A DNA stretch of 64,000 nt from contig CAWIAD010000002.1 in NCBI GenBank assembly GCA_963833985.1, positions 1,216,001-1,280,000 on the forward strand, given 5' to 3'. Made by a program: the position numbers and the translations under genes. The stretch's first letter is position 1. Each line of letters starts with the position of its first letter. Shown in pieces: positions 27,282 to 44,707 of the stretch. This stretch comes from an uncultured Planctomycetaceae bacterium. GTDB taxonomy: Bacteria; Planctomycetota; Planctomycetia; Isosphaerales; Isosphaeraceae. The notes beneath the pieces are model-generated. The model searched no databases. It was given only the letters and a program-made list of their open reading frames with translations, and had not been told where the DNA came from.

Positions 27282-27636
27282 CGAGCGGTAAGGCGTCAGG
27301 GCGAAGGCAAGAAATGCCTGTTGGGCCGGTGGTTCATCACCGTTTACTTATGGGGGATCGGCCCCCGGCGATGCTGAACCCCGGTAGCCGTTCCCTCAAC
27401 TCCCTGGTTCACCCATTGACACCGGCCAGGAGAGGACGTCTACTCTTTCGGTGCTCGAGGGCGCAGGTTGTGTCGAGTCGAAGGCTCTTCATTCTCACGT
27501 CCGGCGCGGCGCATGCCTGAAATCGTCGCATCGATTCGTCTGCATCGGATACGAAACCTTCATCGTTCGCGAAGATCCTGGCGCCGGCTCTGACCTATCT
27601 ACCGGCCGGGCTGAGAAGTTCTACAGGGAGCGGCCC

Positions 27637-29046
27637 TTGGCTTTTCCAGAGAAGGCGGCTGCGAGCCCTTTGGCAGAGAGTGATCAGCCCAGCGAACTGG
27701 TCCGTACCCCACTCCCTGGACCTTTGGGCAGCATGCTCCTCGAGCGGATGAAGACGCATCCTTGCCTGGCCGGCTATACGGATCCGATGCAGGCATCAGA
27801 GCGGGTCTTCCTGGCGAGCCAGCATGATGGTTATCTCTGGGATGTGGATGGGAATCGGTTCATCGACTTCGCCTCGGGCTGGGCGACGAACAACGTCGGG
27901 CACGCCCCGGCGGAGATTGTTGACGCTGCGTCCTCGGCATTACGCGAGCTGGGAGCGGTTTGTTGCACCCCGGGATTCGTGCCCTTCATCCGTTATGAAT
28001 TCGCGGAGAGGCTCCTCACGACCTTCCCCGCCCACCTGCGGCGCGTGGCCCTCTGTGCGACCGGAAGCGAGGCCGTGGAGGCGGCGACGAGATTCATGCG
28101 CGCCGCGACCGGGCGGCCGAATGTGCTGACCACCTACACCAACTTCCACGGGTTCTCCTATGCGGGACTGGCCGCGGGTCCATTCCATGCCCCGTGGCGC
28201 GACACGGCCACGCAGGCGATTCCCTTCTATCTTTACACGCCCTACGCCACCTGCGGGCGTTGTCCGCACCGACTCGATTACCCCTCGTGCGATCTCTGGT
28301 GCGTGCAAGCCATCGAGGAGTATCTGCTGCGTCACCAGGCCGCACCGGAGACCGTCGCCGGGATGATCGTGGAACCGGTGCAAGGTGAGGCCGGAGTCTG
28401 GGTGCCGCCCAGGGAGTATCTGCCCCGGCTGGAGAAACTCTGCCGGAAGTATGGCTGGCTCATGTGCGTCGACGAGGTGGAATGCGGGTTCGGGCGCTGC
28501 GGACGGATGTGGGCGTTCGAGTCGAGTGGCATCTTGCCCGATCTGGTAATCGTCGGCAAGGGCATCGGCGGGAGTCTGCTGCCGCTGGCGGCAGTCGTGG
28601 GGACGCCGGAGGTCATGGACCGAAGGGTCGTCTGGGGTAGCACCTACGCAGGCCAGCCGGCCGCCTGCGTGGCAGCCATCAAGGCCCTGGAGCGACTTCA
28701 GCGCGACGGCCTCGTGGAACGGTCCGCCCGGCTCGGCGCCGCCGGACTGGAGCGGCTTGGACGCTTGTGCGAGAGCAGCACCATCGTGGGCGCGGCCCGG
28801 GGGCAGGGGCTATTCCTGGGGCTGGAGCTGGTCAACGATCGCACCGGCAACATTCCCTCGCCGGAACTGGCACATCGGGTTTATGACGAGTGCCTCTCTC
28901 GTGGCCTGTGCCTGCTCTTTCTGTCCGTGACTCCCACCGTGCGTGTGGCACCTCCCCTGGATATCCCCGAAGATTTATTCTTCCGGGGTCTGGGCATCAT
29001 CGAGAACGTTATCCAAAACCTGCTTCCCGACGCGTATCATTCATGA
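27637..29046 (+). CDS. Class III PLP-dependent aminotransferase (GabT-like)
   Basis: TPLPGP, DVDGNRFIDFASG, TGSEAVE, FHG, VEPVQGEAG, DEVECGFGR, VGKGIGG (PLP Lys). Start placed at a TTG with GGGAG RBS (uncertain). Confidence 0.88.
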   Translation: MAFPEKAAASPLAESDQPSELVRTPLPGPLGSMLLERMKTHPCLAGYTDPMQASERVFLASQHDGYLWDVDGNRFIDFASGWATNNVGHAPAEIVDAASSALRELGAVCCTPGFVPFIRYEFAERLLTTFPAHLRRVALCATGSEAVEAATRFMRAATGRPNVLTTYTNFHGFSYAGLAAGPFHAPWRDTATQAIPFYLYTPYATCGRCPHRLDYPSCDLWCVQAIEEYLLRHQAAPETVAGMIVEPVQGEAGVWVPPREYLPRLEKLCRKYGWLMCVDEVECGFGRCGRMWAFESSGILPDLVIVGKGIGGSLLPLAAVVGTPEVMDRRVVWGSTYAGQPAACVAAIKALERLQRDGLVERSARLGAAGLERLGRLCESSTIVGAARGQGLFLGLELVNDRTGNIPSPELAHRVYDECLSRGLCLLFLSVTPTVRVAPPLDIPEDLFFRGLGIIENVIQNLLPDAYHS

Positions 29047-29429
29047 TCAACCACCCACATAAAGTCGATGTGCTTGGCAGGCATCTGGTTGCCGATCTGA
29101 GTGGGATCAGGCAAACGCTCCTGCTTGATCCGGACGAGATCATGAACGCGCTTGAGCGTGCCGTTTCCTCGGCGGGGTATCATGTCGTTGATCGTCTCAC
29201 ACATGTCTTCAGCGAGTTCGGGTGCGGCTTCACGGGTGTGCTGATCCTGGCCCAGTCCCACGCAATTGTCCACACGTACCCGGAGGCGTGCTACCTGGCC
29301 CTGGACATTTTCGGCTGTGGAACCCATGACCCGCACGTGGTCGTCAATCAACTGATCCATGAATTGGGACCTCAATCAACCTGCTCTCGAGAGCTTGTTC
29401 GAGCGCCTGCCACCAGCGAGTGTTCATAA
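29043..29429 (+). CDS. speD: Pyruvoyl-dependent S-adenosylmethionine decarboxylase-like proenzyme
   Basis: GRHLVADL, GFTGVLILAQSHAIVHTYPE, LDIFGCG; ATGA overlap with the aminotransferase. Confidence 0.8.
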   Translation: MINHPHKVDVLGRHLVADLSGIRQTLLLDPDEIMNALERAVSSAGYHVVDRLTHVFSEFGCGFTGVLILAQSHAIVHTYPEACYLALDIFGCGTHDPHVVVNQLIHELGPQSTCSRELVRAPATSECS

Positions 29430-29458
29430 AGCCTTCTCGCATGGAATCGATCGTCTCG

Positions 29459-31330
29459 TCATTCTTCAAGTTCCATGCAGCAGGGCAGGCTGCCGATCGC
29501 GAACCGACAACCCTCGATGTAGACGAAGTCTGCGCGGAATGGTCTTGGCGGCCAGGGACCGCTCGCCTCGCAGACCTCCTCGCAGAATCCGGCTGAGTCG
29601 GCCGGCCAGTCCCATCGTGCACTCAGCGACGTGAGGGGCGGAACATGCAGCAGGACGGCTGCACCTCTGCGCAACGTCAGTGCCGGATCGATAGCGAATG
29701 ACCGAGGTGTTCGGCGGGTGAACCGGATGGGAGGAAATCCATCCGGCGCATCCTCGACGATCCCGCAACGCACGCAAGACTTCAGTCGTCTCGCCGACGC
29801 GCCCGGGATCCGCATCGAGTACAGTTCGGTGCACAGGGCCTGCCCGCAAACAGGACAGGGAGGACCGTGCGACGAGGTCTCCACCAGCTCGGCCAGCTTC
29901 TGCCAGGCATCGAAAGCGCGGCAGCCCCATGCCGAGAACAGATCCAGCAAGCTGCGGCGCAACTCGGATCTGGCGGCGTCGGCCCCGTCCCCGCAGTCGC
30001 CCCCGAGAAACATTCGCATCTGGAGCGCATCGATACTGCCCATGGCATGGTCGCGTCGCAGCTCCGTCGCAGGGGGCATGCGATTGGACTGGAGCTTGAT
30101 GATCGTCCTGATGAGATCGAGGTCGCCGGAGTCGGATGGGTCGACGGGCGGGACCTCTGGCAGCACGCAGGGCTGATCGGGAGGGACGGCTGACTGCTCC
30201 TGCCTTGGTCCGGGAAGCGGCACGCTGACGAGTGGATCTCCCAGCAGGCAGAAGCGCACGCCGAAGTGTTGCGCCGCGGGCGACCGTAAGAAATGGGTGA
30301 GGGCTGCTCCCACGGGAACTCCCCTGTCGAGGTGATCCGTCAGGTAAGCCGTCATCCGTGGAGACCCGTTGAACAAACCCCATGAAGTTACGACGGCCCC
30401 CAGACGGGGGTTGTTGGCGATGCGCGATGGGAGGGCCCAGGCCTGGTCGACGACCGAGGGCTGCAAGAGAACGCCCCAGCATGTGGCCCAGACGAAGATC
30501 CGCGCGGATAGATCGTCGGGGTCCATGAGCAGCTCGGACTGGAGCACTTCCTCGAGCGGCAAGTCATGCCGGTGGCAAATTCCCGTGACCTGGCAGCCGG
30601 GTGGGCGCAGGGGGTCCGGCCGAGGGGGCGGCCTGCGCATGGGACACAAGGTCAGCTTGCCCAGGAAGGCGTCCATGCCATCGGAATGTGAAAAAACGGA
30701 GAGCACCGCCGGACCACGACCGACCGCGTCCCGCAGTTCGGCGGCCAACGCCCGCGCCCCGAGAATCTCCCGGCCGGAGAAGGTGAACCTGGGCATCTCG
30801 AGTCCCGGGTAGAGCTCGATGGCCCGCGTCGGGGCCGGGCCTGCAAGCACCGCCGCCGCCGAACGAACCAGCACCTGGCCCCGCAGGCTGTCGCGGTCGC
30901 TTGCGAATAAAATACCGGTCGCCGGTTCCACGGGCTCGTCTGGATACAGGGCGTTCATCAATTCCAGGGTAAGTTGATCCGTGGAGGTGATGAGTACGGA
31001 AGGATGAGTCTGCCCGGCAAGCTGGCTTACGCTCTCGATGCTCTGATAGCGCCGGCCCGTGAGGTGAGCGTACAGGTTGCCAAGATCGCTTCCCAGGTGA
31101 TCCAGGTGTAGGCCGACGACGAGCGCGAGGTTTGCCGCGGGCGCGTCGGACCTAAGGTAAGTCTCCCGTTCCTCGCGAAGCTCGGCATGGAAGAGAGACG
31201 CAAGCTGCTTGAGTGACGCGAAGTCAGTCTCATTCTTGAGCGGCCAGACGGGTTCACCGGTACGGTTGACCAGAAGGTCCGTCGCCAGCGTCCATTGGAC
31301 CGGCAAGGCCTGGAGTTTTCGGTGCATCAT
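29459..31330 (-). CDS. Putative clan CD (C25/CHAT-like) cysteine protease with C-terminal zinc-ribbon motifs
   Basis: Strand-His LSVFSHSDG, strand-Cys IFVWATCWG, GAVVTSWG, closing FCLLGDP; CPVCG...CVRCG. Confidence 0.55.
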   Translation of the reverse strand: MMHRKLQALPVQWTLATDLLVNRTGEPVWPLKNETDFASLKQLASLFHAELREERETYLRSDAPAANLALVVGLHLDHLGSDLGNLYAHLTGRRYQSIESVSQLAGQTHPSVLITSTDQLTLELMNALYPDEPVEPATGILFASDRDSLRGQVLVRSAAAVLAGPAPTRAIELYPGLEMPRFTFSGREILGARALAAELRDAVGRGPAVLSVFSHSDGMDAFLGKLTLCPMRRPPPRPDPLRPPGCQVTGICHRHDLPLEEVLQSELLMDPDDLSARIFVWATCWGVLLQPSVVDQAWALPSRIANNPRLGAVVTSWGLFNGSPRMTAYLTDHLDRGVPVGAALTHFLRSPAAQHFGVRFCLLGDPLVSVPLPGPRQEQSAVPPDQPCVLPEVPPVDPSDSGDLDLIRTIIKLQSNRMPPATELRRDHAMGSIDALQMRMFLGGDCGDGADAARSELRRSLLDLFSAWGCRAFDAWQKLAELVETSSHGPPCPVCGQALCTELYSMRIPGASARRLKSCVRCGIVEDAPDGFPPIRFTRRTPRSFAIDPALTLRRGAAVLLHVPPLTSLSARWDWPADSAGFCEEVCEASGPWPPRPFRADFVYIEGCRFAIGSLPCCMELEE

Positions 31331-31942
31331 TGCTGTCCGCTCTCGAATCGGAGGACCTGGACAATGGCGGGCGCCTCACCCGACTACGAGTGCCACCGGC
31401 ACGGTATGATCTCCGTCGAGTGGTCGATCACGGGTCGCTTCGCCCCTTCCGGTCGCCATGCGCACCAGCTCATCGAGGAAATCATCATGCAGGACGGTTC
31501 GATTGTCAAAGTCTTCACCCTGTGCGGAAGCCGGCCGGGGCAGGCCCGATCCTCCGGCTTCACGCCGTCGTCTGCACGATTCTCGAAGCGCAGGCAGACC
31601 CGACGCTGAGAGCGAATGAAGGCGAAAACAAAAAATGCCAGTTCTCGCGTGGCCGTCCTTGACACCTTCATTATGAACCTCGTTCTGTCCGCGACTCGCG
31701 CGTGGCTCCCGAGCCAGCCAGGGAAATCCAGCAGGGACTTGATTTCTTTTGACAATGATTCCAGAACAGGGATGCCAGGGCGTGCCGCGATCACGCGGAG
31801 GCCTGCGCGATGCGGGCGGGATTCGCCACGGCCGTGGGAGTGCCGTCGCAATCTGCTGGTTTGAAGCCGGTCTGGCGGAGTGCATCGGCCAGGACCTGTG
31901 GTTGACCCACTGGAAGACCCTCCTCATGGAGATCCGGCCCCG

Positions 31943-32755
31943 ATGATCACGCGAGAGCAGGTGAATCGCTACAGTGAGCACGGTTACCTTGTCGTACCGA
32001 ACCTTCTGGGCGCGTCTGAGCTGGAGAAGTTGAGAGTCGCGGTGGCCGCTGTGGAACAGGCGGCAAGTGCGCTCGATGCGACCAATGATCGTTTCCAGCT
32101 CGAGGCCGAGCCCTGCGATGGCCGGAAAGTCGCCAACGCAGTCGCCGACCCGATCCTCGATCACCCCGGGTTCTTCGAGGTTCTCAGTCTGCCCCATGTC
32201 CTCGACGTCGTCGCGGGGCTTCTCGGTACGCCGAACGTCAAGCTCCACCACACCAAGCTCTTCATGAAATACCCCGGCTCTCCGTGGTCGATTCACTGGC
32301 ACCAGGATTTCTCGTATCTTCTCCACTGCAATTTTGACCTGCTGGCGGTGATGTTCATGCTCGATGGATCGGACGACGAGAACGGGGGCCTGAAGGTCGT
32401 GCCGGGCTCGCATCGCGAAGGACCGATCGAAGTGACAAATCCCGAGGCAGGCTGGATGATCGACCTGGCGCCCTGGGCCGCCGGACGTCTCGTGGAGTCG
32501 CTCACGGTCCCGCCTGGGGGAGCTTCCATACACCACTGCTGCCTGGTCCATTCCTCCGCCCCCAATCGATCCACGCGTCCGCGCCGGGCGTTCATCGTCG
32601 AATATTCCGCCGCAGACAATTATCCGATCGCGGGCAGGACTGACTACGCTGGCTATGGGACGATGCTCCGCGGTTTGGACCCTCGGAGAGCTCGCTGCAT
32701 CGCGGGAGACTGGCGCATCCCGCCGGCACGCAGCCGAAGTCGACACCGCCAGTGA
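31943..32755 (+). CDS. Phytanoyl-CoA dioxygenase family Fe(II)/2OG oxygenase
   Basis: YSEHGYLVVPNLL, WHQD, ENGGLKVVPGSH, VHSSAPNRS...RR. Confidence 0.9.
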   Translation: MITREQVNRYSEHGYLVVPNLLGASELEKLRVAVAAVEQAASALDATNDRFQLEAEPCDGRKVANAVADPILDHPGFFEVLSLPHVLDVVAGLLGTPNVKLHHTKLFMKYPGSPWSIHWHQDFSYLLHCNFDLLAVMFMLDGSDDENGGLKVVPGSHREGPIEVTNPEAGWMIDLAPWAAGRLVESLTVPPGGASIHHCCLVHSSAPNRSTRPRRAFIVEYSAADNYPIAGRTDYAGYGTMLRGLDPRRARCIAGDWRIPPARSRSRHRQ

Positions 32756-33137
32756 GCACCCGTTTCCGAGCATGAAGCCCGGCCCGGCCCTCAGGTCTCT
32801 GGTCATCGGGCCGCCGCTCCCAGAGACTGGCCAAGCAGGGCGTGCCCGTATTCGCAGGCGACGGGCGCGTGCACTGACCGGTCAAAGTGTGGCGCTGCGC
32901 CGTTGTCGCGACCGGCTGAGTGCGATGCTCCCATTGCCGAACGGAAAAGTTCGGGAGCCGCGGCCGGCGTTCCATGATTCATTCGGAACGAGTAGTGATC
33001 CAGAGCCTTGACACGGGCGTTCCGGCGCGTTCAAAATCATTTCGCTCAAGTCGGCATCGGAGATTCTCCGGTGCACGGACAACTCTATGTGCACCTCAAC
33101 GGGCCAGCAAATCCTTTCTCAAGGCCGGAGTGACACG

Positions 33138-33464
33138 ATGAGCGAACAAGATCGGATCAAGGACGCGCTCAGCAAGATGACCGAGGATCAGGTCGAGGCC
33201 ATCAGACGTGTATTGACATCCACGTACGAGGAAGGTCCCACGAAGCTCACGCCGGAGCAGATCAAGAGCCTGGCGGCTGAGTCTGCCGAATTCCACAGGG
33301 CACAGAAACAGGTGGCCGAAGCGGTCGGCGTGCTGTGGAACGCTCGTCTCGATCTGGCCATCAAACTCGGAGATCCGGAAGACGTACAGCGTGCCATGAT
33401 GCGACCGGTCGACTTTTACGACAACTGCGACTGCGGTGGCACCGTAGGCACCCAGTGCTGGTGA
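33138..33464 (+). CDS. Candidate RiPP precursor peptide (108 aa; helical leader, Cys/Gly-rich C-terminal core ending in Trp)
   Basis: GGAG RBS 7 nt before ATG; all three Cys lie in the last 12 residues (CDCGGTVGTQCW); directly upstream of SPASM radical SAM genes. Confidence 0.8.
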   Translation: MSEQDRIKDALSKMTEDQVEAIRRVLTSTYEEGPTKLTPEQIKSLAAESAEFHRAQKQVAEAVGVLWNARLDLAIKLGDPEDVQRAMMRPVDFYDNCDCGGTVGTQCW

Positions 33465-33651: not shown

Positions 33652-35037
33652 ATGAACGTAACGACCTGGATGCCATCGCGCTTCAACCTCGCAACTCGGG
33701 ACGCGGACGGTTCCCTGCTGCTCTACAACAGCTACATGGGCGCCTTCGCCCGGATCCCGGAGGCCGAAGTGCCACGGGTCCGATCGGCCCTCGACGGCGG
33801 ATTGTCCGAGGACCCCACTGGCATCCTGGCGGAGCTGTGCATCAACGGCTTCCTCGTACCCGACGGCGTCGACGAATTCAAGAGGGCCGAGGCGCTGCGG
33901 ACCGAGGAGTACACGACCAGCCGCGAATTACAGCTCGTGCTGCTTCCGAACGAGCAGTGTAATTTCCGCTGCAAGTACTGCTCGCAGACGTTTACACGAA
34001 AGAAGATGAAGCGGGAAGTCATTGAAGGTATCGTTGCGCACGTTCGATCGAGAGCTGCGGATCTGTCAGTACTCACGGTCGGGTGGTTCGGCGGCGAACC
34101 ACTCACCGCCATCGAGATCATCGAGGAGGTCGCAGGTCGCTTGCAGACGATCTGTGCAGAGTACGGGATCTATTACTCCAGCAGTATGACCACGAATGGT
34201 TACCTGCTGACGCCGCGGGTCGCGAAGATCCTCTTCCGCGCGGAGGTCCGAGGATTCCAGATCACGCTCGATGGTCCCCAGGAACAGCACGATCGGTTGC
34301 GGGTGCTCGGCGATGGCAAGACCGGCACCTTCAAGACGATCCTCAGCAACCTCAACGCCCTGCGCGACCAGCCGGAAGCGTTCAAGGCGGTCATCCGCGT
34401 CAATTTCGACGCGGAGTCGGTGGATTGCATGGACCCTTTCCTTGATCTGGTGCGCTCCGAGTTCGCTGCGGATTCGAGATTCTGCCTCGATTTCCACCCC
34501 GTGGGAAAGTGGGGCGGGCCCCATGACGAATACCTCTCGGTCTGCGGGATCGACGATGGCCGAACCTACTCGGTGGATCTGGCCAGGAAGGCGGCCGAGG
34601 GAGGGTTTGAACCTTACGCCCTGCGTGAGAAGCTCAAACCGCTTGGCAGCAAGTGCTACGCGGCCAGACCGCATTCGTTTGTCATCGGATCCGACGGGAC
34701 CGTCTACAAGTGTACGGTTGCGCTGGAAGATCCGAGGAATCATGTTGGCCGCATCACCGGCGAGGGCGCGCTGCTCATCGATGCCGACAAGCACGCTCAA
34801 TGGATCGGCACGGGAGACAATGAGGACGCCGGTTGCCATTCGTGTTTCTTCCGGCCGTCGTGTCAGGGGAACGCCTGCCCTTTACATCGAATGAACACGA
34901 GTGAGCGTCCCTGCCCGACGATCAAGACGAATATCGAACAGGTCCTGTACACGATCTCGGCAAGCCATGCCATTAAGTCGGCGGGCCGACGGGCCGAACC
35001 GGTGAAGGAGCCCGCCCATCTCACAGTCGATTCCTGA
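33652..35037 (+). CDS. Radical SAM/SPASM peptide maturase 1 with probable N-terminal RRE
   Basis: CNFRCKYC, WFGGEP, TTNGYLL, QITLDG; SPASM CYAA...GTVYKC and CHSCFFRPSCQGNACP..C; N-terminal SRFN...LLLYNSYMG. Confidence 0.92.
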   Translation: MNVTTWMPSRFNLATRDADGSLLLYNSYMGAFARIPEAEVPRVRSALDGGLSEDPTGILAELCINGFLVPDGVDEFKRAEALRTEEYTTSRELQLVLLPNEQCNFRCKYCSQTFTRKKMKREVIEGIVAHVRSRAADLSVLTVGWFGGEPLTAIEIIEEVAGRLQTICAEYGIYYSSSMTTNGYLLTPRVAKILFRAEVRGFQITLDGPQEQHDRLRVLGDGKTGTFKTILSNLNALRDQPEAFKAVIRVNFDAESVDCMDPFLDLVRSEFAADSRFCLDFHPVGKWGGPHDEYLSVCGIDDGRTYSVDLARKAAEGGFEPYALREKLKPLGSKCYAARPHSFVIGSDGTVYKCTVALEDPRNHVGRITGEGALLIDADKHAQWIGTGDNEDAGCHSCFFRPSCQGNACPLHRMNTSERPCPTIKTNIEQVLYTISASHAIKSAGRRAEPVKEPAHLTVDS

Positions 35038-35041
35038 TTCC

Positions 35042-36088
35042 GTGACTCGCATGGAAATCGCGGACGATGCGACGGCGTCCGGCGCGTCCGGGACCCTGTC
35101 GTCATTCTTCGCGGCGTGGATCGAGCCTTTGTTCCCCCGGGACGAGCAAACGCGGATGCTCGAGGGCTTCGCATTCCTCGTCGACCGAGCCTTTGCCGCT
35201 CCGCTCGGTCCGGGAAGTCGCAGGTCCAATCTCTGTGCGGACGGGACCCCGCTGGAGATGTCGCTGGCGCTTGACAACAGCGGTCGCTGGGCGATCCGGT
35301 TTGTATGCGACGTGGCGGCAGGGTCGACCGCCGACGAGTCGATCGGGTTCCATCGCGCACTTGCGGACAGGGTGATCCCGGACTCCGGTTCACGCGCGGA
35401 GGAACTCGACTGGCTCTTCGGCAAACACCTCTCGGGTGCGCTCGAAAGCTCGCGGTTCCGGGTCTGGTACGGGATGGGCTTTGCTCCTCAGCACATGGAT
35501 GTCGGTAAACTTTATTTCAATACCGAATGGTTGTCGGCGGTCCAGGTGCACGAGATCGCGGCTCGGTTTCTGTCGCCGGAGATGCTCGACGGCCTGGCGT
35601 CGATTCCTTTGCTGAAGAGGGAATCCTACGTCGGCGTCGGTTACGATTTTGACCGCGCAGGGCTACGAAAACTGAAAACCTATGTCAGATTGGCCGGGCT
35701 CGACGTCGCTGCACTCGAGAGCAGCGTGGACTGCCATTGTCGCGGCCGGCAGGGCCGCTTTCGGCAACTCCTGGAGAGGGTAGCCGAGGCCTGCGGTCGG
35801 CCCTACGAGGACAGCTTCGTCGCTTCCGCCGGCTACGTTCCTCGCTGGGGGAAGCGAGAGTTCAAGGTCTACCTCTCGCTGGCGGCCTGGGGCATACGCG
35901 ACTTCGCGGCGACGGCTCCGTTGTTGCAGGCGATTCTCGCCGGCTGGGGATTTCAGGCGGGCACTCTTGACACCTCACCCGGCCCCGCAGGGTGCGTGCC
36001 GACGCTCCTGGCGATCGGCGTGGATGATGATCGAGAGCTGGCGTCAATCTATTTCAAACCCGAGCTGGATCCCGGAGTGTGCCCGTGA
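35042..36088 (+). CDS. DMATS-type (ABBA barrel) aromatic/indole prenyltransferase
   Basis: SNLCADGTPLEMSL (the DMATS DG.P.E.S motif) and repeated K-x-Y strands KLYFN, KTYVR, KVYL, plus IYFKP. Confidence 0.7.
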   Translation: MTRMEIADDATASGASGTLSSFFAAWIEPLFPRDEQTRMLEGFAFLVDRAFAAPLGPGSRRSNLCADGTPLEMSLALDNSGRWAIRFVCDVAAGSTADESIGFHRALADRVIPDSGSRAEELDWLFGKHLSGALESSRFRVWYGMGFAPQHMDVGKLYFNTEWLSAVQVHEIAARFLSPEMLDGLASIPLLKRESYVGVGYDFDRAGLRKLKTYVRLAGLDVAALESSVDCHCRGRQGRFRQLLERVAEACGRPYEDSFVASAGYVPRWGKREFKVYLSLAAWGIRDFAATAPLLQAILAGWGFQAGTLDTSPGPAGCVPTLLAIGVDDDRELASIYFKPELDPGVCP

Positions 36089-36360: not shown

Positions 36361-37908
36361 ATGAACGCCGTTCAGGATTCTTCGATCCGCTCCTTCTCTT
36401 ATTCGGGAACGGTCTACGATTTCGACACTGCCACGCTGCGTTTCCTGGCGCGCGATCGGTCGGGGCATCCTGCGGAGACGGCCTGTGGATGCCGGGAACC
36501 GGAGAGCCCCGCCGAGCCAGCGATGCGTCCGGCCGGCATCAACTTCATCACTCTGAACGTGGCCCACGACTGCAATATGACCTGCCCCTACTGCTTTGCC
36601 AAGGAAGGGCTCTACGGCGGACCGCGGCAGCTCATGACGGCGGAGACGGCCAGGCGCTGCGTGGACTGGCTGATCAAGGTCTCGGGGGCGCACTCGGATT
36701 GCTTCCTGCGCTTCCTGGGCGGCGAGCCGCTCCTGAACTTGCCTGTGATGCGCGCAGCCATGGAGTACGCCCTTGAGCAGGGGGCCGCACGGGGCAAGCA
36801 CATCCACTTCAGCGTGAATACCAACGGCACGATCTTCAGTGAGGAGGTTGATGAGCTTTTGCGGAAGTACCGCGTGACTATCTCGATCAGCATGGACGGC
36901 ACGCGGGAGGCCCATGACACGTATCGAGTTTTCCGATCCGGGCGGGGGAGCTACGACACGGTCGTGCAGAACGTCCCGAAGTTCCTTGCGATCGATCCCT
37001 ATGCGATGGTGAACGCCACCCTCACGGCCGACAACGTCGACCTCTTCGAGTACGCCGTGCATTTCCGCAGCCTGGGGTTTCAGATCATCCGGTTCGCGAT
37101 CGTCGGCACCGCGGTGCCTGGAGTTGCCGTGCGTCGCGAGGAATTGCTGGATCGCATCCGGACCAACTATGACCGGCTTGCCGAGTACTATGCTGATGAC
37201 CTGAGACACGGACACATCTGGTACCTGTCAGACTTTTACAAGTATTTCGAGAACCTGCGCTTCCTTCACCCACGAATGAATCGGTGCGGGGCCGGGACGT
37301 CGTACGTGAACATCGACGTGAATGGAAAAGTGCACCTTTGCCACCGCTTCACCGCCGACAAAACTCAGGAAATCGGCGACGTCTCGAATGGCCTGGATCA
37401 GCTCGCGGTTCCCCACGAGATCCGGAGGATGAACCAGCTGCTGCCCATGAACGGCTCGGTCCCCTCTGGCGTGCAGCCGTCCCCGGTTCCGTCGCGAGGT
37501 AATTCCGTCAGCGTCGCGCTGCCGGTCATCGGCCAGGTCTCAGGGGCCTCCTCCTGCGGGAGTCATGTAAGCAGACCGCATGCGGAGGATCCGCTCACCG
37601 CCGTGCATCGCCGGCTTGATGGAGAAGTGATGCTCGAGCAGCGCGGCTCTCTGGCCGGCGGCAATAATCCGTGCTCGATTTGCGACATTCGCTTCTTGTG
37701 CGGGGGCATGTGTTTCCACGATGGGGAAATCCTTCACGGGGACCTGTTCGGCGGTCCGGACGTTTTCAAATGCGAAGTGGATCGACACCTGGCCAAGATT
37801 GCCATCTGGCTCGTCGACCAGATCCACGCGCTGGACGATGGCGTCTTCGCCGAGCTGGACAGGTTGCACCAATGCTCGGCCCAGCGCACCAAGGGCAAGG
37901 AGCACTGA
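36361..37908 (+). CDS. Radical SAM/SPASM peptide maturase 2 (CteB/PapB ranthipeptide-like)
   Basis: LNVAHDCNMTCPYCFA.EG.YGG, FLGGEPLLN, NTNG, SMDG; SPASM CGAG...GKVHLCHRF and CSICDIRFLCGGMCFH..C. Confidence 0.92.
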   Translation: MNAVQDSSIRSFSYSGTVYDFDTATLRFLARDRSGHPAETACGCREPESPAEPAMRPAGINFITLNVAHDCNMTCPYCFAKEGLYGGPRQLMTAETARRCVDWLIKVSGAHSDCFLRFLGGEPLLNLPVMRAAMEYALEQGAARGKHIHFSVNTNGTIFSEEVDELLRKYRVTISISMDGTREAHDTYRVFRSGRGSYDTVVQNVPKFLAIDPYAMVNATLTADNVDLFEYAVHFRSLGFQIIRFAIVGTAVPGVAVRREELLDRIRTNYDRLAEYYADDLRHGHIWYLSDFYKYFENLRFLHPRMNRCGAGTSYVNIDVNGKVHLCHRFTADKTQEIGDVSNGLDQLAVPHEIRRMNQLLPMNGSVPSGVQPSPVPSRGNSVSVALPVIGQVSGASSCGSHVSRPHAEDPLTAVHRRLDGEVMLEQRGSLAGGNNPCSICDIRFLCGGMCFHDGEILHGDLFGGPDVFKCEVDRHLAKIAIWLVDQIHALDDGVFAELDRLHQCSAQRTKGKEH

Positions 37909-38015: not shown

Positions 38016-39449
38016 ATGGTCGACTGCGTCCTGGTCTACCCGAACCCGTCTCGCGATAGCCCCAATCGCAACCTGGCGCTGGGCATTCTCTTCGTCGGTG
38101 CGGCTCTCGAGGAGCAGGGCTTCTCCGTCGCCTACATCGACCTGCGCTTCGACACGAGGCAGGAACTCGCCGGCTTGCTGACTGGCGGTGTGCGCGTGCT
38201 CGGCGTCTCCGTCATGACCGGGAACCAGTGCAAGGAAGCCGCGGAGGTACTTCGCATGGCGAAGACCCTCGCGCCCACTGTCCGCACGGTCCTTGGCGGT
38301 GTGCACCCGTCGATGCTGCCACAGGAATGCCTGGATGAACCCGACGTCGACTTCGTCGTCACCGGCGAGGGCGAGCAGACCATGGTCGAGCTGGTCCAGG
38401 CCATCCTCGACGGCACTCACGATTTTGGCGGCATCACGGGGCTGGGGTGGAAAGATCACGGGGAGACGAAGCGGAACCCCGACCGTCCGTTCATGGACCT
38501 GGCAAGTGCGCCGTTCCCGATGACTCCGGCCAGCAGGCGCTTCTACGAGATTGCCGCCCGTACGGGTCACGTCAGTTACTTCACCACGCGCGGCTGCCCT
38601 TTCCGTTGCAGCTTCTGCTACAACCTGGCCTTCAACAAGCGGAAGTGGCGCTCGCTTCCGATGGAGCGACTCGAGGAGGATCTCCGGCGGGTCCGCCGCG
38701 AAGTTCCGTTCGACCACGTCTACTTCGTCGACGATTACGTCGGCCATCGCGTCGAGCGTCTCCGCGACCTGGCCAGCACCATGAACCGCATCCAGCTCAC
38801 CTGGCACTCCTCGATCCGCGTCAACGACATCAGCGCCGAGACGGTGAAGATCCTGGCCGACGGGAATTGCAGGCTGATGCTTCTGGGTGTCGAATCGGCC
38901 GCCGAGGACGTGCAGCAGGGAATCCTCGTGAAGGACTATCGCCAGGGCATCGACGACGTGCGCCGTTGCGTCACGAGCATCGCGCGGACGAATATCACGC
39001 CGCTCTACAGCTTCATGTACAATGTCCCCGGCGAGACGTCCGAGCAGCTCAAAGAGTCATGCGAGCTGGCCGAGTGGATCCATCGCACCGATCGACGGGC
39101 GCGGATCGGCTTCTACGCGTACACGCCCTACCCGGGAACGCCCCTCTATAATCAGGCCCTCCAGTCGGGCTTTCGGCCCCCCTCGCGGCTGGAAGGCTGG
39201 GGACAGATGAGCCTGAGCAACGACCTCAACCCGAAGCTGCGCGACCTCTACTACATCGCCGGACTTCGCTTCCGGGGCCGCAAGGGCGACCGCACGGATG
39301 AGAACTTCCCCGGGCTCCAGCGGCTGCGCATCCTGCCTTTCGAGGCCATTTCACGAATGCGCTGGCGAATGCGGAGTTTCGTCTACACGGACTACGAACG
39401 CCGGATGGTCACCAACATGATCGAGCACGCCACGCGCCGTGCGCGCTAG
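38016..39449 (+). CDS. Cobalamin-binding radical SAM enzyme (class B methyltransferase-like)
   Basis: VLGGVHPS, VTGEGE, TRGCPFRCSFC, YFVDD, GVES, TPYPGTPLY. Confidence 0.92.
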   Translation: MVDCVLVYPNPSRDSPNRNLALGILFVGAALEEQGFSVAYIDLRFDTRQELAGLLTGGVRVLGVSVMTGNQCKEAAEVLRMAKTLAPTVRTVLGGVHPSMLPQECLDEPDVDFVVTGEGEQTMVELVQAILDGTHDFGGITGLGWKDHGETKRNPDRPFMDLASAPFPMTPASRRFYEIAARTGHVSYFTTRGCPFRCSFCYNLAFNKRKWRSLPMERLEEDLRRVRREVPFDHVYFVDDYVGHRVERLRDLASTMNRIQLTWHSSIRVNDISAETVKILADGNCRLMLLGVESAAEDVQQGILVKDYRQGIDDVRRCVTSIARTNITPLYSFMYNVPGETSEQLKESCELAEWIHRTDRRARIGFYAYTPYPGTPLYNQALQSGFRPPSRLEGWGQMSLSNDLNPKLRDLYYIAGLRFRGRKGDRTDENFPGLQRLRILPFEAISRMRWRMRSFVYTDYERRMVTNMIEHATRRAR

Positions 39450-39469
39450 ATGAGAGGGTCGGCACGACG

Positions 39470-42085
39470 ATGATGGAGGACACAACGGAAATCTGCATCT
39501 GGGGGGCCGGCCTGGTGGGCTATTCGCTCGCGTGCGCCCTGGCGGAACGCGGGCGGAAGTGCATACTGGTCGATATCTCCCGGGATGTCGTCGAGCGCAT
39601 CAACGCCGGTGCTCCCCCCCGTTCACTGCATGGTGTGTACGGCTCTCAGCCCCTGGATGCCGGTGTCCGCGGTCGCTTGCGGGCGACGATGGAGCCGTCG
39701 CTGGCACTGTCGCCCGAGCACCCTGTGCACATCATCGCGGTGCCCACGGAGCGTGGGGGCCTGGTTTGCTCGGACCACCTGCGTGAGGTGGTCGAGAATG
39801 TCGCCCGTGCGGAATCCGCGGCGCGTCCGCTCTACTTCCTGATCGAGTCCACCGTCTCCCCCACCTGGATCGATGGCATCGTCCACGCGACGTTCCGAGC
39901 CGCCGGTTGGAGGCACGGCGAGGATTACCACGTTGGCTGTTCACCGCGGCGCGATGTCTTCGGCGATCCTGCTTATGCGATGCAGCAGATCGACAAGGTT
40001 TACGGTGCCGACAGCGAGCAGGGTGCGGAACTGATGCAGGCACTCTACACTCCGCTCTGCCGGGGACTGCATCGGGCGCCCGATGCTCGCCATGCATCGC
40101 TCACGAAGCTCGTGGAGAATCTCTACCGGCACCAGGCGATCCTGCTGGCGAATCGGCTCGCGGCCGCGCTCCCCGGCTTCGACGTCGCGGAGGTGCTCCG
40201 CCTGGCCGCGACGAAATGGAATATGCAACTCTACCATCCCTCCCTCTGGGTCGGCGGCTACTGCGTTCCGCTCGCGAAGGATTACCTGGCGTCCTCGGTG
40301 GAACCGCAATGGAGGGACGATCTCCTCCCGGTCGAGGATATATCAAGGATGGAAAAGTTGTTCCTGGATGCCCTTTTTGCCGGAGCGTCGGGCCGGCGGG
40401 TTGGTCTGCTCGGGCTTTCGTACGCGCCGGGTCTACGTATCGTGGTGAACGCTCCGGCGCTGCGGGTCGTGCGTTACCTGAAGCGTCGGGGCCTCGAGGT
40501 GGCTGTCCACGACCCCTATTTCAGCGAGACCGAGATCCTCGAGCTCGCAGCAGTGCCCAGGTTCGATTTCCCGAGCGAGCTGCGAGACTACGATGACGTT
40601 GTGCTGCTGACCGCGCACGTGGAGTATAGCCGGATCTCCGATCGCGAGCTGGCCGCTCATCTGCCGGCGCGGGCCCGGCTCATCGACAACTGCGGCATCT
40701 GGAGACGGCGCCGCTGGGCGGAGGGGATCCGCTACGTCGAGATTGGCGGGGCGGGCTTTCGCGGCACCGACATGCCGGATGGGCAGGCAATTCAAGCCTC
40801 GGAGATCGAGGCCTCCGACTGCCCCGTCGCGTGCTCACCCGCCAGGAACCGGGCGTACCTGGAGCGGCTCGAGCGGGAAGGTGAGCTGCCAGGGTTTTAT
40901 ACACACGTGGATCGCATCCTCCAGATCGACCGAGACTACCTGCACGCGCAATTCGACGGTGAGCGAATGAATATCCCGCAGCTCGGGGAACGGGTGCGGG
41001 CCCTACGAGGCAAGCCGATCGCCGACCACTCCGACGCCCAGATCGATACCATCTGTGCTCTTGCAGTCTATGGGATGGCGTGGGTGCGGCTCGAATACGT
41101 CGATATGCGAGTGACGATGGAGCGCGCCTGTCGCTACCTCGTGGATACGGCCGAAACTTACAATCGGAACCTCCTGGAGATTGGAGAGGAGCCAGCCCGA
41201 TGGCCGCCGGGATCTCCCTGGTGGAAGATCGCGTCGCAAATCCCGGAGCTACGCGAGCGGATCGACGGGCATTATTTCCGGCTCTCTCTCATCAACGGCG
41301 CGAACTGGTACCGGAGGGAGGTCTTCCTGAGGAAGCAAGAGCTCGAGCCGCAGCCAATGCCCCGGACTCTTGCCGGCGCATTCGCAGCGCATTCGCCGGT
41401 TCCCAGGCTGATCGACGCGAGCGATCCGCACGAATCGCTCCGTGCCCTCACGAGGGCGGTGCTCGAGCGAGATCAATCCCCCACAACTTTGCTGGTGACA
41501 TTGATGAAGGCGGCGACCGAGGACCCTTGCATCGACGCCCACCACACGACACTGCTGTGCCCGCGGGGCACGATGCTGGAACGTCCCTGGGAGATGTCGC
41601 CAGAGGACTTCCTCGCGTACGTCGTGTTCCGCCCGGGGTTCGAGCCGCCGGTCGGCCAGGGCGTGCACGACTTCCGCACGATCCAGAAGGCGATGCTGGC
41701 TCATCACGCGGCGAAAAAAACCAAGCTGGCAAGGCGTTACAAGGCGCGCTACGGCCCTGGCTCGGTGGCGCAGCTTGCCGACAATCTTGGTGATCTGGGG
41801 ATCTACTACAATGAGGACGCGCACCATAAGGGCCACCAGGTTGCCGGCGTCGCGTCCGCCATGCGTTATCTCATGCCCGTGCGGGTGCGGCGCGAGGAAA
41901 AGGAATTCCGGATCGAGGGCCTGACCGACTTCCGGGTCACACGCATGAGCCGGGCGGAACGAGATCGCTTCCGCCTGGAGGACTTCCCGCTGTTCCATGA
42001 CTACGGCGGCTGGGCGCGTACCATCCTGGAGACTGCGTATTCGATGGGCTTCGTCTTTCCCCGAATGCTCGAGAACTGGCGATGA
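39470..42085 (+). CDS. NDP-sugar (UDP-GlcNAc/ManNAc/Glc) 6-dehydrogenase fused to a ~430-aa domain of unknown function
   Basis: GAGLVG, AVPT, IESTV, KLVEN (catalytic Lys), GGYCVP (catalytic Cys), LGLSY, HDP, LTAH; unassigned C-terminal half with EDAHHKGH. Confidence 0.82.
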   Translation: MMEDTTEICIWGAGLVGYSLACALAERGRKCILVDISRDVVERINAGAPPRSLHGVYGSQPLDAGVRGRLRATMEPSLALSPEHPVHIIAVPTERGGLVCSDHLREVVENVARAESAARPLYFLIESTVSPTWIDGIVHATFRAAGWRHGEDYHVGCSPRRDVFGDPAYAMQQIDKVYGADSEQGAELMQALYTPLCRGLHRAPDARHASLTKLVENLYRHQAILLANRLAAALPGFDVAEVLRLAATKWNMQLYHPSLWVGGYCVPLAKDYLASSVEPQWRDDLLPVEDISRMEKLFLDALFAGASGRRVGLLGLSYAPGLRIVVNAPALRVVRYLKRRGLEVAVHDPYFSETEILELAAVPRFDFPSELRDYDDVVLLTAHVEYSRISDRELAAHLPARARLIDNCGIWRRRRWAEGIRYVEIGGAGFRGTDMPDGQAIQASEIEASDCPVACSPARNRAYLERLEREGELPGFYTHVDRILQIDRDYLHAQFDGERMNIPQLGERVRALRGKPIADHSDAQIDTICALAVYGMAWVRLEYVDMRVTMERACRYLVDTAETYNRNLLEIGEEPARWPPGSPWWKIASQIPELRERIDGHYFRLSLINGANWYRREVFLRKQELEPQPMPRTLAGAFAAHSPVPRLIDASDPHESLRALTRAVLERDQSPTTLLVTLMKAATEDPCIDAHHTTLLCPRGTMLERPWEMSPEDFLAYVVFRPGFEPPVGQGVHDFRTIQKAMLAHHAAKKTKLARRYKARYGPGSVAQLADNLGDLGIYYNEDAHHKGHQVAGVASAMRYLMPVRVRREEKEFRIEGLTDFRVTRMSRAERDRFRLEDFPLFHDYGGWARTILETAYSMGFVFPRMLENWR

Positions 42086-42714
42086 ACCGGACGATGCTTG
42101 CGCTCATGGCCCACCCGGACGATGCCGAGCTGTGCATGGGGGGGACAATCGCCCGCTACGCGCACGCCGGGTTCCGGGCCGAGATCGTGATCTCGTCGCT
42201 GCCGGACTTCCCGGACGTCCGTCGTGCCGAGGCTGCTCAGGGGGCTGCGGTCCTCGGCGCAGGTGTCCGCATCCTCGCTCCGCCCTCGAAACGCGAGACC
42301 TGGCAGGTCGAGGACTTTCCGGTGTACCGGCTGGTGGCGGCCTTCGACGCGATCCTGGAGGAGCTCCAGCCGTCCCTCGTATTCACGCACTGGCCCAAAG
42401 ACACGCACTTCGATCATGTTCGAGTGAGCCAGGCAGCCTTCTCGGCCACACGGAGGCACAGGGTCGACCTGTACCTGTGCGAGCAACCCAACCTCTACGC
42501 GGCCACCGTGGAGCCGATGAAGTTGAATACGTATGTGGACGTATCCCAGTTCATGGATAAGAGACTGGACAGCATCGCCTGCCACCGGTCGCAGACACAG
42601 GGGAAGACCTATTCGGAGCACGTCCGTGCCCGCACCCGGTTCCACGGGGAACGGACCGGCTGCCAGTATGCGGAGGCCTTCTGCTGCGCAATCCAGCGGC
42701 TGAGGATTGATTGA
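42082..42714 (+). CDS. PIG-L/LmbE family N-deacetylase
   Basis: AHPDDAE and DTHFDH zinc motifs, HRSQ, YAEAF; ATGA coupling to the upstream gene. Confidence 0.92.
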   Translation: MNRTMLALMAHPDDAELCMGGTIARYAHAGFRAEIVISSLPDFPDVRRAEAAQGAAVLGAGVRILAPPSKRETWQVEDFPVYRLVAAFDAILEELQPSLVFTHWPKDTHFDHVRVSQAAFSATRRHRVDLYLCEQPNLYAATVEPMKLNTYVDVSQFMDKRLDSIACHRSQTQGKTYSEHVRARTRFHGERTGCQYAEAFCCAIQRLRID

Positions 42715-42716
42715 GC

Positions 42717-43574
42717 ATGGGGCATTCCAGTCCTGTTGGGTTCTCGACAACGGTCATCGGGCGTTCGACCGACCTCAGCCGTCTGCTGGAGCTCGAACCC
42801 GACATCATCGAGCTGTGCGGCTATTCCGCCGCGCAGTGGCCCTCAGTGCGGGCGCAAATCGAGCGGTTGGGCATTCCCGTAGGGCTCCACTGTCCTTTGC
42901 CGTTCGAAGGATTCGTCCCCCACTTCGATATCACGGGACCAGACTCTGCGCGACAGGAAGAGGCTTTTGCGCTGGTCCGCCAGACACTTCGAGCTGCTTG
43001 CGAAGTGCAGGCCCGGTACGTCATTGTCCATTTCCCGAGCGTGCTCCGTGAGATTCTCGACGAGGATGACGCTCTCGAATCTCGTCGTGCTGCGGCGCTG
43101 TGCAGCGCACGGCGGATCGCGGAGCTCAGCCAGCAATACGGGGTGGCGATCCTGCTGGAGAACGTCGGCCCCAATCCTTATCTCTATCTCGGCGAGCACT
43201 TCACCTGGTTGTTCGGCCAGGTTCCCGAGCTGAGGATGTGCCTCGATTTCGGCCACTCCCATGTCCTGCCGGGAGCCGAGGACGTGTATCGATTTGCCGA
43301 GCAGGTCGCACCATTCGTCTCCGGGCTCCACGTCTACAATGCGACCCGGGCGGGCTATCGGGTCGGTTTCCACGAGGCACCGCTGGCTGAGCACGATCCC
43401 GACGAAGGCTGGATGGACCTGTCCAGGCTGCTCGCCGTGATGGCGAAGAGAGCCACGATTCCTTATTTCATTTTTGAGTACTCCGAAGATAGTGGACAGG
43501 ATGTGGAAGCCGTCCGGCGCGGCGTGCAACACTGGACCGCGACCTGGAGGAGTCTATGCCGCGAGGAGGGTTAA
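42717..43574 (+). CDS. Sugar phosphate isomerase/epimerase (xylose-isomerase-like TIM barrel)
   Basis: GLHCP, IVHFP, LLENV, CLDFGH, LHVYN, IFE metal-ligand pattern. Confidence 0.8.
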   Translation: MGHSSPVGFSTTVIGRSTDLSRLLELEPDIIELCGYSAAQWPSVRAQIERLGIPVGLHCPLPFEGFVPHFDITGPDSARQEEAFALVRQTLRAACEVQARYVIVHFPSVLREILDEDDALESRRAAALCSARRIAELSQQYGVAILLENVGPNPYLYLGEHFTWLFGQVPELRMCLDFGHSHVLPGAEDVYRFAEQVAPFVSGLHVYNATRAGYRVGFHEAPLAEHDPDEGWMDLSRLLAVMAKRATIPYFIFEYSEDSGQDVEAVRRGVQHWTATWRSLCREEG

Positions 43575-44707
43575 GAGGCTGGCTCCGTGGGCAACGGCTC
43601 CGTGCGCGGGGGGCGTCGCTCGGGGCGGGAACTTACGTCAGCCAGGGAGTGCGGATCAGCGCCCCGGACATCCGGATCGGGGCCGGCGGTTTCCTCGCCC
43701 CGGGCGTCGAGATCCAGGCGGATCGTGTCGTGATCGGCGACCGCTGTCACGTTGCGGAGGGGGTTTCACTTCGCGCAGAGCGCATCGAGATCGGCGAGAA
43801 TTGCATCCTGTTTCCGGGCGTTCGCATTCAGACGCTCGGCGAATTCCGCATGGGCCCGTACGGGAAGATCAGCCGTGGCGCGACGATCAAGGGGGGAAGC
43901 GTCCGGATCGGGTCCGAATTCTGGATGAACGCCGGCGCCGAGATTGGCGGCGGGGGATGGCGCAGTCGGACAGGTTGTTTCGAGGCGGGGGACCGCTGTC
44001 ACGTGGGCCGGTTGACTCACATCAATGTGACCGAGCCGGTCGTCTTCGGCGACGATACGGCGGTGGGCATGCACTGTATCCTGGCAACACATGCGCACTG
44101 GCAACCCGCAACGCAGGGCTATCCGCGGCTGCGCGGGGCCATCCGGCTGGGGTCAGACGTGGCGATCTATTCGGGAGTGATCATATCTCCGGGCGTCACC
44201 GTGGGTCACGGCGCGGTAATCGCGGCGGGCGCGGTCGTTCAGACGGACGTACCGGATCTGTCCCTGGCGGCGGGAGTGCCGGCACGAATCGTCCGTGAGC
44301 ACTTTCCCCGCGGTGGGGGAGCGCCTGTCGCCCTGGCACTGCTCTGCGAGTACATGGAAACGCGCTTCCCGGGTGTATCGTACCACTCGAAGGCCGGGCG
44401 TTTCATCGCCCAGCCCGCCACCGGAGCCCAGTGCATTCTGTATGACGACGATGAGAGTGCGATGGACCACGAGTCACGGCCCGGGTCGCTGATCGTCGTC
44501 ACGCTGAACCGGGCTGTTGCGGACGCGGCACAATCCGGAGCCGAGACCGTCTTCAACCTCGGTGATCGCGAGTTGACGGGCCGCTCCACGGAATTGAGCG
44601 AGTCGCTGCGTCAGTTCTTTTTCAGCGCGGGCCTGCGCTTCAAGTACCGAGGATACCAGCGCGGACCGCTGGACTACGCGCAACTGATCGAGTCCGGAAT
44701 CGAGTGA
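43556..44707 (+). CDS. Hexapeptide-repeat (left-handed beta-helix) acyltransferase
   Basis: Many [IV]G..[CV].[IV] repeats; ISPGVTVGHGAVIAAGAVV..DVP...AAGVPARIVR. Confidence 0.88.
   Translation: MPRGGLRGWLRGQRLRARGASLGAGTYVSQGVRISAPDIRIGAGGFLAPGVEIQADRVVIGDRCHVAEGVSLRAERIEIGENCILFPGVRIQTLGEFRMGPYGKISRGATIKGGSVRIGSEFWMNAGAEIGGGGWRSRTGCFEAGDRCHVGRLTHINVTEPVVFGDDTAVGMHCILATHAHWQPATQGYPRLRGAIRLGSDVAIYSGVIISPGVTVGHGAVIAAGAVVQTDVPDLSLAAGVPARIVREHFPRGGGAPVALALLCEYMETRFPGVSYHSKAGRFIAQPATGAQCILYDDDESAMDHESRPGSLIVVTLNRAVADAAQSGAETVFNLGDRELTGRSTELSESLRQFFFSAGLRFKYRGYQRGPLDYAQLIESGIE

Follow-up and report, generated by a model that had tools for sequence, protein, structure and literature searches.

What does an enzyme resembling the dimethylallyltryptophan synthases (DMATS) of small-molecule metabolism do when its gene sits among radical S-adenosylmethionine (rSAM) enzymes? 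The question is raised by a prenyltransferase (PT) gene in 64,000 nucleotides of an uncultured Planctomycetaceae bacterium (assembly GCA_963833985.1, contig CAWIAD010000002.1, positions 1,216,001 to 1,280,000), a stretch that we call the window and to which all coordinates without a prefix refer. As judged from gene order, the PT is part of a conserved three-gene cassette for a peptide that is made ribosomally and modified after translation (RiPP), where it follows a precursor peptide and an rSAM maturase, rSAM1 (Table 1). It is a DMATS-fold enzyme that probably prenylates the indole of the last residue of the precursor, Trp108. Indeed, because the PT travels with an rSAM enzyme and with a small peptide that usually ends in Trp, it is likely that it puts a prenyl tail on this residue.

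A conserved three-gene cassette

Nine loci with a PT homologue were compared: that of the window, a paralogue in the same genome (C1, locus L015), locus L014 of genome G029, and loci L001 to L006. In eight of the nine, rSAM1 is the gene immediately before the PT, L005 comprising too little DNA, and its identity is 46-68% across seven related loci. A precursor homologue precedes rSAM1 in all seven loci that can be read, and it ends in Trp in five of them (window, C1, L001, L003 and L006). PT and rSAM1 are tightly coupled. Searches of whole genomes with precursor profiles returned only PT-bearing loci, plus one weak, chance-like match. Because neither the second maturase of the window (rSAM2) nor the B12-binding rSAM protein nor any other tailoring gene has an orthologue in the eight related loci, the conserved unit consists of precursor, rSAM1 and PT. 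The first-pass annotation had set the PT between two SPASM maturases, which is what the window contains, whereas the related loci keep the upstream one only. The cassette is rare, being present in 2 of 121 genomes of its own family.

A different rSAM enzyme and a different precursor directly follow the PT at two of these loci (L001:11093-12968, L004:2078-2745). The precursor has an NHLP leader (TIGR03793, above cut-off) and repeated W-x-D-T-W cores. This second Trp-bearing peptide, absent from the window, could be a PT substrate there.

A prenyltransferase barrel remote from its named relatives

The PT scores 20.2 bits against Pfam Trp_DMAT (PF11991; curated cut-off 25) and 18.3 bits against TIGR03429, below its curated cut-off of 163.85; within the family, 9 of 26 members pass the Pfam cut-off and 22 of 26 match at E<=0.01. 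Sequence searches gave five homologues (39-77% identity), a PDB search with the single sequence gave no match, and the ESM Atlas ranked Trp_DMAT third (87% of members; score 0.94, low recognition). The predicted model is a ten-stranded antiparallel barrel made of alpha-alpha-beta-beta (ABBA) repeats. Conserved residues are E69, R83, K153, Y155, K207, K209, Y211, Y274 and Y334 (numbering of the 345-residue form that begins at ATG 35051; the GTG form adds 3), while K153 and K272 vary within the family. The protein thus has the indole-binding Glu and the Arg, Lys and Tyr residues for the diphosphate, of which the window PT retains the complete basic and Tyr set, and it is devoid of an Asp-rich metal motif. 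E69, invariant in the family, aligns with E89 of MpnD; we take it to be the partner of the indole N-H, and the other residues presumably also act as their counterparts do in FgaPT2 and MpnD. Compared with bacterial DMATS-type enzymes (5-DMATS 6zs0, 6-DMATS/IptA, PriB, CymD, MpnD/TleC), which natively use free Trp or indolactam V, the window PT is encoded in a RiPP cassette, has 13-19% identity, falls in a separate clade and has altered residues on the acceptor side. Barrel and conserved residues agree with the initial assignment to the DMATS/ABBA enzymes, and the model supports a PT barrel of the DMATS type, remote from anything named.

Two other identities were considered and rejected. The predicted model is a beta-barrel, not the all-helical isoprenoid synthase fold that a trans-isoprenyl diphosphate synthase of the ComQ/PalQ kind would have, and with 345-348 residues the protein comprises the PT domain only, without the MstE-like cyclase of fusions such as NctPC. 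As for the cyanobactin family (LynF/TruF/PatF), the only matches were Trp_DMAT in Pfam (E<=0.1) and TIGR03429 in NCBIfam (E<=0.01), libraries in which a LynF model is presumably present.

A FastTree tree, which carried long-branch warnings, groups the PT family (31 rows) with a clade of 57 rows at support 100, apart from canonical DMATS (the joint group has 89 rows), and the profiles of the two match each other at 99.9%. The sister clade is rich in proteins of 540-720 residues in which a PT is fused to a squalene-hopene-cyclase-like domain. The PTs of the C1 paralogue and of G029 sit there, and their rSAM and precursor partners come from the same families as in the window. In G029 the fusion is an intact protein of 686 residues (L014:7981-11759). 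Its C-terminal domain gave matches to MstE (E 2.5e-7) and to the prenylcyclase 6ij1 (E 2e-14); the precursor of this locus, Lys-rich at its end, carries Trp internally, next to the Cys motif. The second cassette of the window genome (G000:C1:963701-967929, about 5700-9930 of L015) has an 82-residue precursor ending in -SQCW, an rSAM1 paralogue of 48% identity and a fusion that a change of frame interrupts near residue 528-531 when it is compared with the intact protein of G029. The window genome carries both versions, PT alone and PT-cyclase, and both precursors end in -QCW.

A precursor family that favours a terminal tryptophan

The window precursor, for which we found no Pfam family and no meaningful NCBIfam match, ends in QCW108 and carries Y94. 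Its family comprises 53 clusters, 50 of which were kept (E 9e-12 or better). Trp is the last residue in 32 of the 50, on 19 different tails of 8-14 residues that have no internal Trp; the background is 60 of 2931 long open reading frames (ORFs) of the window genome. The match between PT and C-terminal Trp, already pointed out in the first-pass annotation, thus extends to the family and to most readable loci, and the cassette shows strong selection for this residue.

Tandem precursors with a common leader are found at L001:7767-8541 and L006:801-1556, one copy being short, acidic and without Trp, the other Gly-rich and ending in Trp. Contigs of equal length suggest three further tandem pairs (P0013/P0169, P0015/P0170 and P0177/P0171).

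Which substrate, and which reaction?

A number of facts weigh against modification of the terminal Trp. Characterised DMATS relatives use free Trp or indolactam, and the fold alignment of the PT took in canonical DMATS rows. The loci are few, and some of them (L001, L006) are closely related; the precursor clusters are kin too, found with a profile that included the terminal-Trp column. Eighteen of the 50 have no terminal Trp. In six, Trp is confined to the aromatic position preceding the Cys pair, while the core of 12, mostly short acidic copies, is without any Trp; for L001 and L006, such copies were seen beside a Trp-ending one. The sole precursors of L002 and L014 have internal Trp only. 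In a tree built from leaders alone, six of the clusters that lack a terminal Trp fall together in a single clade with a long branch, matched on the enzyme side by K209Q, which is confined to the PT clade of P0039, P0041 and L002. This association appears to be a single correlated event, directly linked only in L002, and the intact G029 fusion keeps K209 though its precursor has no terminal Trp. Finally, the aromatic residue three positions before the first Cys is kept in 49 of the 50 clusters, better than the terminal Trp. The L002 lineage (L002:2425-5162), where precursors without terminal Trp accompany a PT with both K209Q and K153M, is possibly degenerate or re-purposed.

Such conservation by the Cys motif invites the view that the PT modifies the precursor there (at Tyr94, or at Trp or Phe elsewhere) or at the Trp nearest to the ring, the terminal Trp having another role, in receptor binding or in an rSAM cross-link. 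We hold this to be unlikely. It would account for L002 and L014, where Trp stands at the aromatic site only, and for acceptor-side residues unlike those of Trp DMATS, some DMATS being able to take Tyr (8day, among the matches listed). Yet E69, in its presumed role of indole partner, is invariant, variation among Y, W and F at that site would be unusual for a selective PT, and the terminal Trp is retained across the 19 unrelated linkers. That the PT might be an ordinary small-molecule DMATS acting on free Trp or another indole, and making a separate product with the neighbouring aminotransferase, PhyH dioxygenase and B12 rSAM enzyme, seems to us distinctly improbable: all solved relatives do use small indoles and the window is replete with small-molecule tailoring genes, but those genes have no homologue in the eight related loci, where the precursor and the tightly coupled rSAM1 are present, and the PT stands outside the canonical DMATS clade, in the 89-row group with the PT-cyclase fusions. 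We give very little credit to a barrel that would not, or not mainly, prenylate, and would instead bind the Trp of the peptide as a scaffold or catalyse a different indole reaction, the terminal Trp being cross-linked by rSAM1 or rSAM2. The low identity to characterised PTs, the loss of K209 in one lineage and the variation of K153 and K272 would suit such a protein; by contrast, the diphosphate-binding set of the window PT is complete, and relatives fused to an MstE-like terpene cyclase imply that a prenylated substrate is needed.

A possible course of the reaction

Prenylation of Trp108 is the reading that we prefer. From what is observed, namely the fold, residue conservation, gene order and terminal-Trp enrichment, we infer which substrate and donor are used, where the prenyl group goes, in what order the steps run, and which cross-link and protease are involved, as follows. 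rSAM1 would bind the leader and cross-link the aromatic-D-N-C-x-C motif, most likely by a thioether from Cys to Asp or Asn. The adjacency of an rSAM/SPASM maturase and a Cys-containing precursor is of the ranthipeptide or sactipeptide type, and the D/N-x-x-C arrangement, found in every precursor core compared here, fits Cys-Asp/Asn thioethers (PMC11002830). The thioether is a tentative assignment, because the best matches of rSAM1, maturases of Cys-rich peptides, all lie below cut-off (TIGR04463, 220 bits for a cut-off of 525; PapB, 107 for 340), and the conserved aromatic residue of the core makes a cyclophane a possible alternative cross-link. The PT would then bind a short donor, probably dimethylallyl diphosphate, by means of R83, K153, Y155, K207, K209, Y211 and Y334, without a metal, and ionise it, E69 orienting the indole N-H for Friedel-Crafts alkylation. 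A flexible linker of 8-14 residues would let the terminal Trp enter the barrel as free L-Trp does; such a residue may suit a closed DMATS barrel because its free carboxylate is presented as in the free amino acid. Finally, a peptidase, for which the product of 29459-31330 is a candidate and a lead only, would free the cross-linked lipopeptide core.

Relation to known systems

RiPP Trp residues are substrates of other ABBA enzymes. NctPC (steromaze), as presented in section 2.3 of PMC13290415, is an ABBA PT fused to an MstE-like cyclase that geranylgeranylates a RiPP Trp. Set beside that description, the sister clade, including the C1 paralogue and G029, has the same architecture, while the window PT differs by having no cyclase, an rSAM/SPASM partner and an unrelated leader. 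MppC, a leader-dependent Trp C5 geranyltransferase of a lanthipeptide that refuses free L-Trp (PMC12715784), is comparable as an ABBA barrel acting on the Trp of a macrocyclised long-leader RiPP, and unlike the PT in several respects: it is ascribed to the PT family of cyanobactins, its model includes Mg2+, its target is an internal Trp, and it is associated with LanM and a Nif11 leader (PMC12715784). In the PalQ/PalX system (PMC10853753), PalQ acts on a precursor with a long leader and prenylates its conserved C-terminal Trp, a glycine-rich context being favoured; its fold is that of a trans-isoprenyl diphosphate synthase, an Asp-rich motif is present, and there is no rSAM partner. The peptide PT families listed in the relevant part of PMC13290415 are the cyanobactin and trans-isoprenyl diphosphate synthase ones, DMATS enzymes figuring only in vitro, on daptomycin.

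The first-pass annotation had held prenylation of a bridged peptide by a DMATS-fold enzyme to be unusual RiPP chemistry. With MppC, NctPC and PalQ in print, as far as these sources go, neither an ABBA PT on a RiPP Trp nor C-terminal Trp prenylation is new. What stands is the pairing: our literature search found no paper on a cassette joining rSAM/SPASM and DMATS-type enzymes, nor on the precursor family. Even a DMATS that acts on a RiPP may already be known, because WygG may belong to that family: Trp dimethylallylation of lasso peptides, RiPPs of non-cyanobacteria, was reportedly described by Harris et al. in 2024 (wygwalassin/WygG) and Shi et al. in 2025 (collinodin), and WygG is said to be Trp_DMAT-like, in which case it would be a direct precedent. 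Both systems reportedly differ from the cassette in their lasso scaffold and in having no rSAM/SPASM enzyme. With an rSAM/SPASM enzyme beside a precursor with Cys and Asp or Asn, the cassette resembles ranthipeptide systems (PapB, CteB, NxxcB) and maturases of Cys-rich peptides (TIGR04463, Clo7bot, CefB); it is unlike them in that rSAM1 scores below cut-offs, and we found no reported PT partner for them.

It is conceivable, and we propose it tentatively, that these loci make up an undescribed RiPP class of rSAM-cross-linked peptides lipidated on a C-terminal Trp by a peptide-specific DMATS branch, the sister branch adding an MstE-like cyclase to make polycyclic terpenoid-peptide hybrids. By analogy, the PT would work like a hybrid of DMATS and PalQ, yet it misses the curated DMATS cut-offs, and its substrate is one that we infer. 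If true, rSAM/SPASM cross-linking and DMATS-type prenylation would be joined on a precursor family without a Pfam or NCBIfam model, and a metal-free barrel with selectivity for C-terminal Trp would achieve the chemistry of PalQ in a second, unrelated way and offer a tool for the site-selective lipidation of peptides. As the clade connects small-molecule DMATS to PT-cyclase fusions, the way in which indole PTs moved to peptides and longer donors becomes testable. With its three genes, the cassette is of a size that allows it to be co-expressed directly in E. coli.

The gene and its neighbours

Table 1. Features of the prenyltransferase locus in the window
Feature	Position	Strand	Description
Sigma-70-like promoter match	33008..33037	+	Upstream of precursor; consensus match only, 10/12 matches
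Precursor peptide	33138..33464	+	108 aa; conserved leader of helical type with WNARLD motif; core aromatic-D-N-C-x-C; Trp108 at the end of a flexible linker
rSAM1	33652..35037	+	Radical SAM/SPASM maturase, conserved PT partner; ORF open from 33559, orthologues suggest a start at 33652
PT ORF	35042..36088	+	GTG start, 348 aa; DMATS-fold aromatic prenyltransferase
rSAM2	36361..37908	+	Radical SAM/SPASM, Nif11/PapB/SCIFF-maturase-like below cut-offs; accessory
B12-binding radical SAM protein	38016..39449	+	Accessory; possible methyltransferase
623-aa protein	29459..31330	-	Without Pfam match; may be a C25/gingipain-like peptidase (a lead only)

The reading frame of the PT is supported by its third-position G+C of 0.76. 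As had been noted at first sight, the ORF carries DGTPLEMS (35240-35263) and repeated KxY strands (beginning at 35507 with KLY, 35669 with KLKTY and 35864 with KVY), and its GTG follows the rSAM1 stop after a gap of 4 nt. The gene call in the database (P0003) begins at the ATG, for 345 residues, and this start is more likely than the GTG.

Both genes flanking the PT encode rSAM proteins that match SPASM weakly and have its Cys patterns; neither protein reaches a cut-off of any characterised thioether-forming maturase family (the best score of rSAM2 is about 224 bits). In rSAM2, some 65 low-complexity residues are inserted between the SPASM halves (37400-37650). The 623-residue protein has a homologue beside the L001 cassette (27% identity over 617 columns, E 2e-55). 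Its His- and Cys-containing motifs are like those of a C25/caspase-fold peptidase, its C-terminus is rich in Cys pairs, and Peptidase_C25 is found on 21% of the members of a match scoring 0.92. Three sigma-70-like sites were found, for 0.9 expected in shuffles.

The flanks (27451-32755 and 38016-44707) encode a class III aminotransferase, an S-adenosylmethionine decarboxylase-like protein, a PhyH dioxygenase, the B12 rSAM protein, a PIG-L deacetylase, a TIM barrel, a hexapeptide acyltransferase and a nucleotide-sugar dehydrogenase to which about 450 residues without assignment are fused. In G029, upstream of the cassette (L014:109-7689), overlapping ORF pieces contain motifs that resemble those of a Tc-toxin A subunit.
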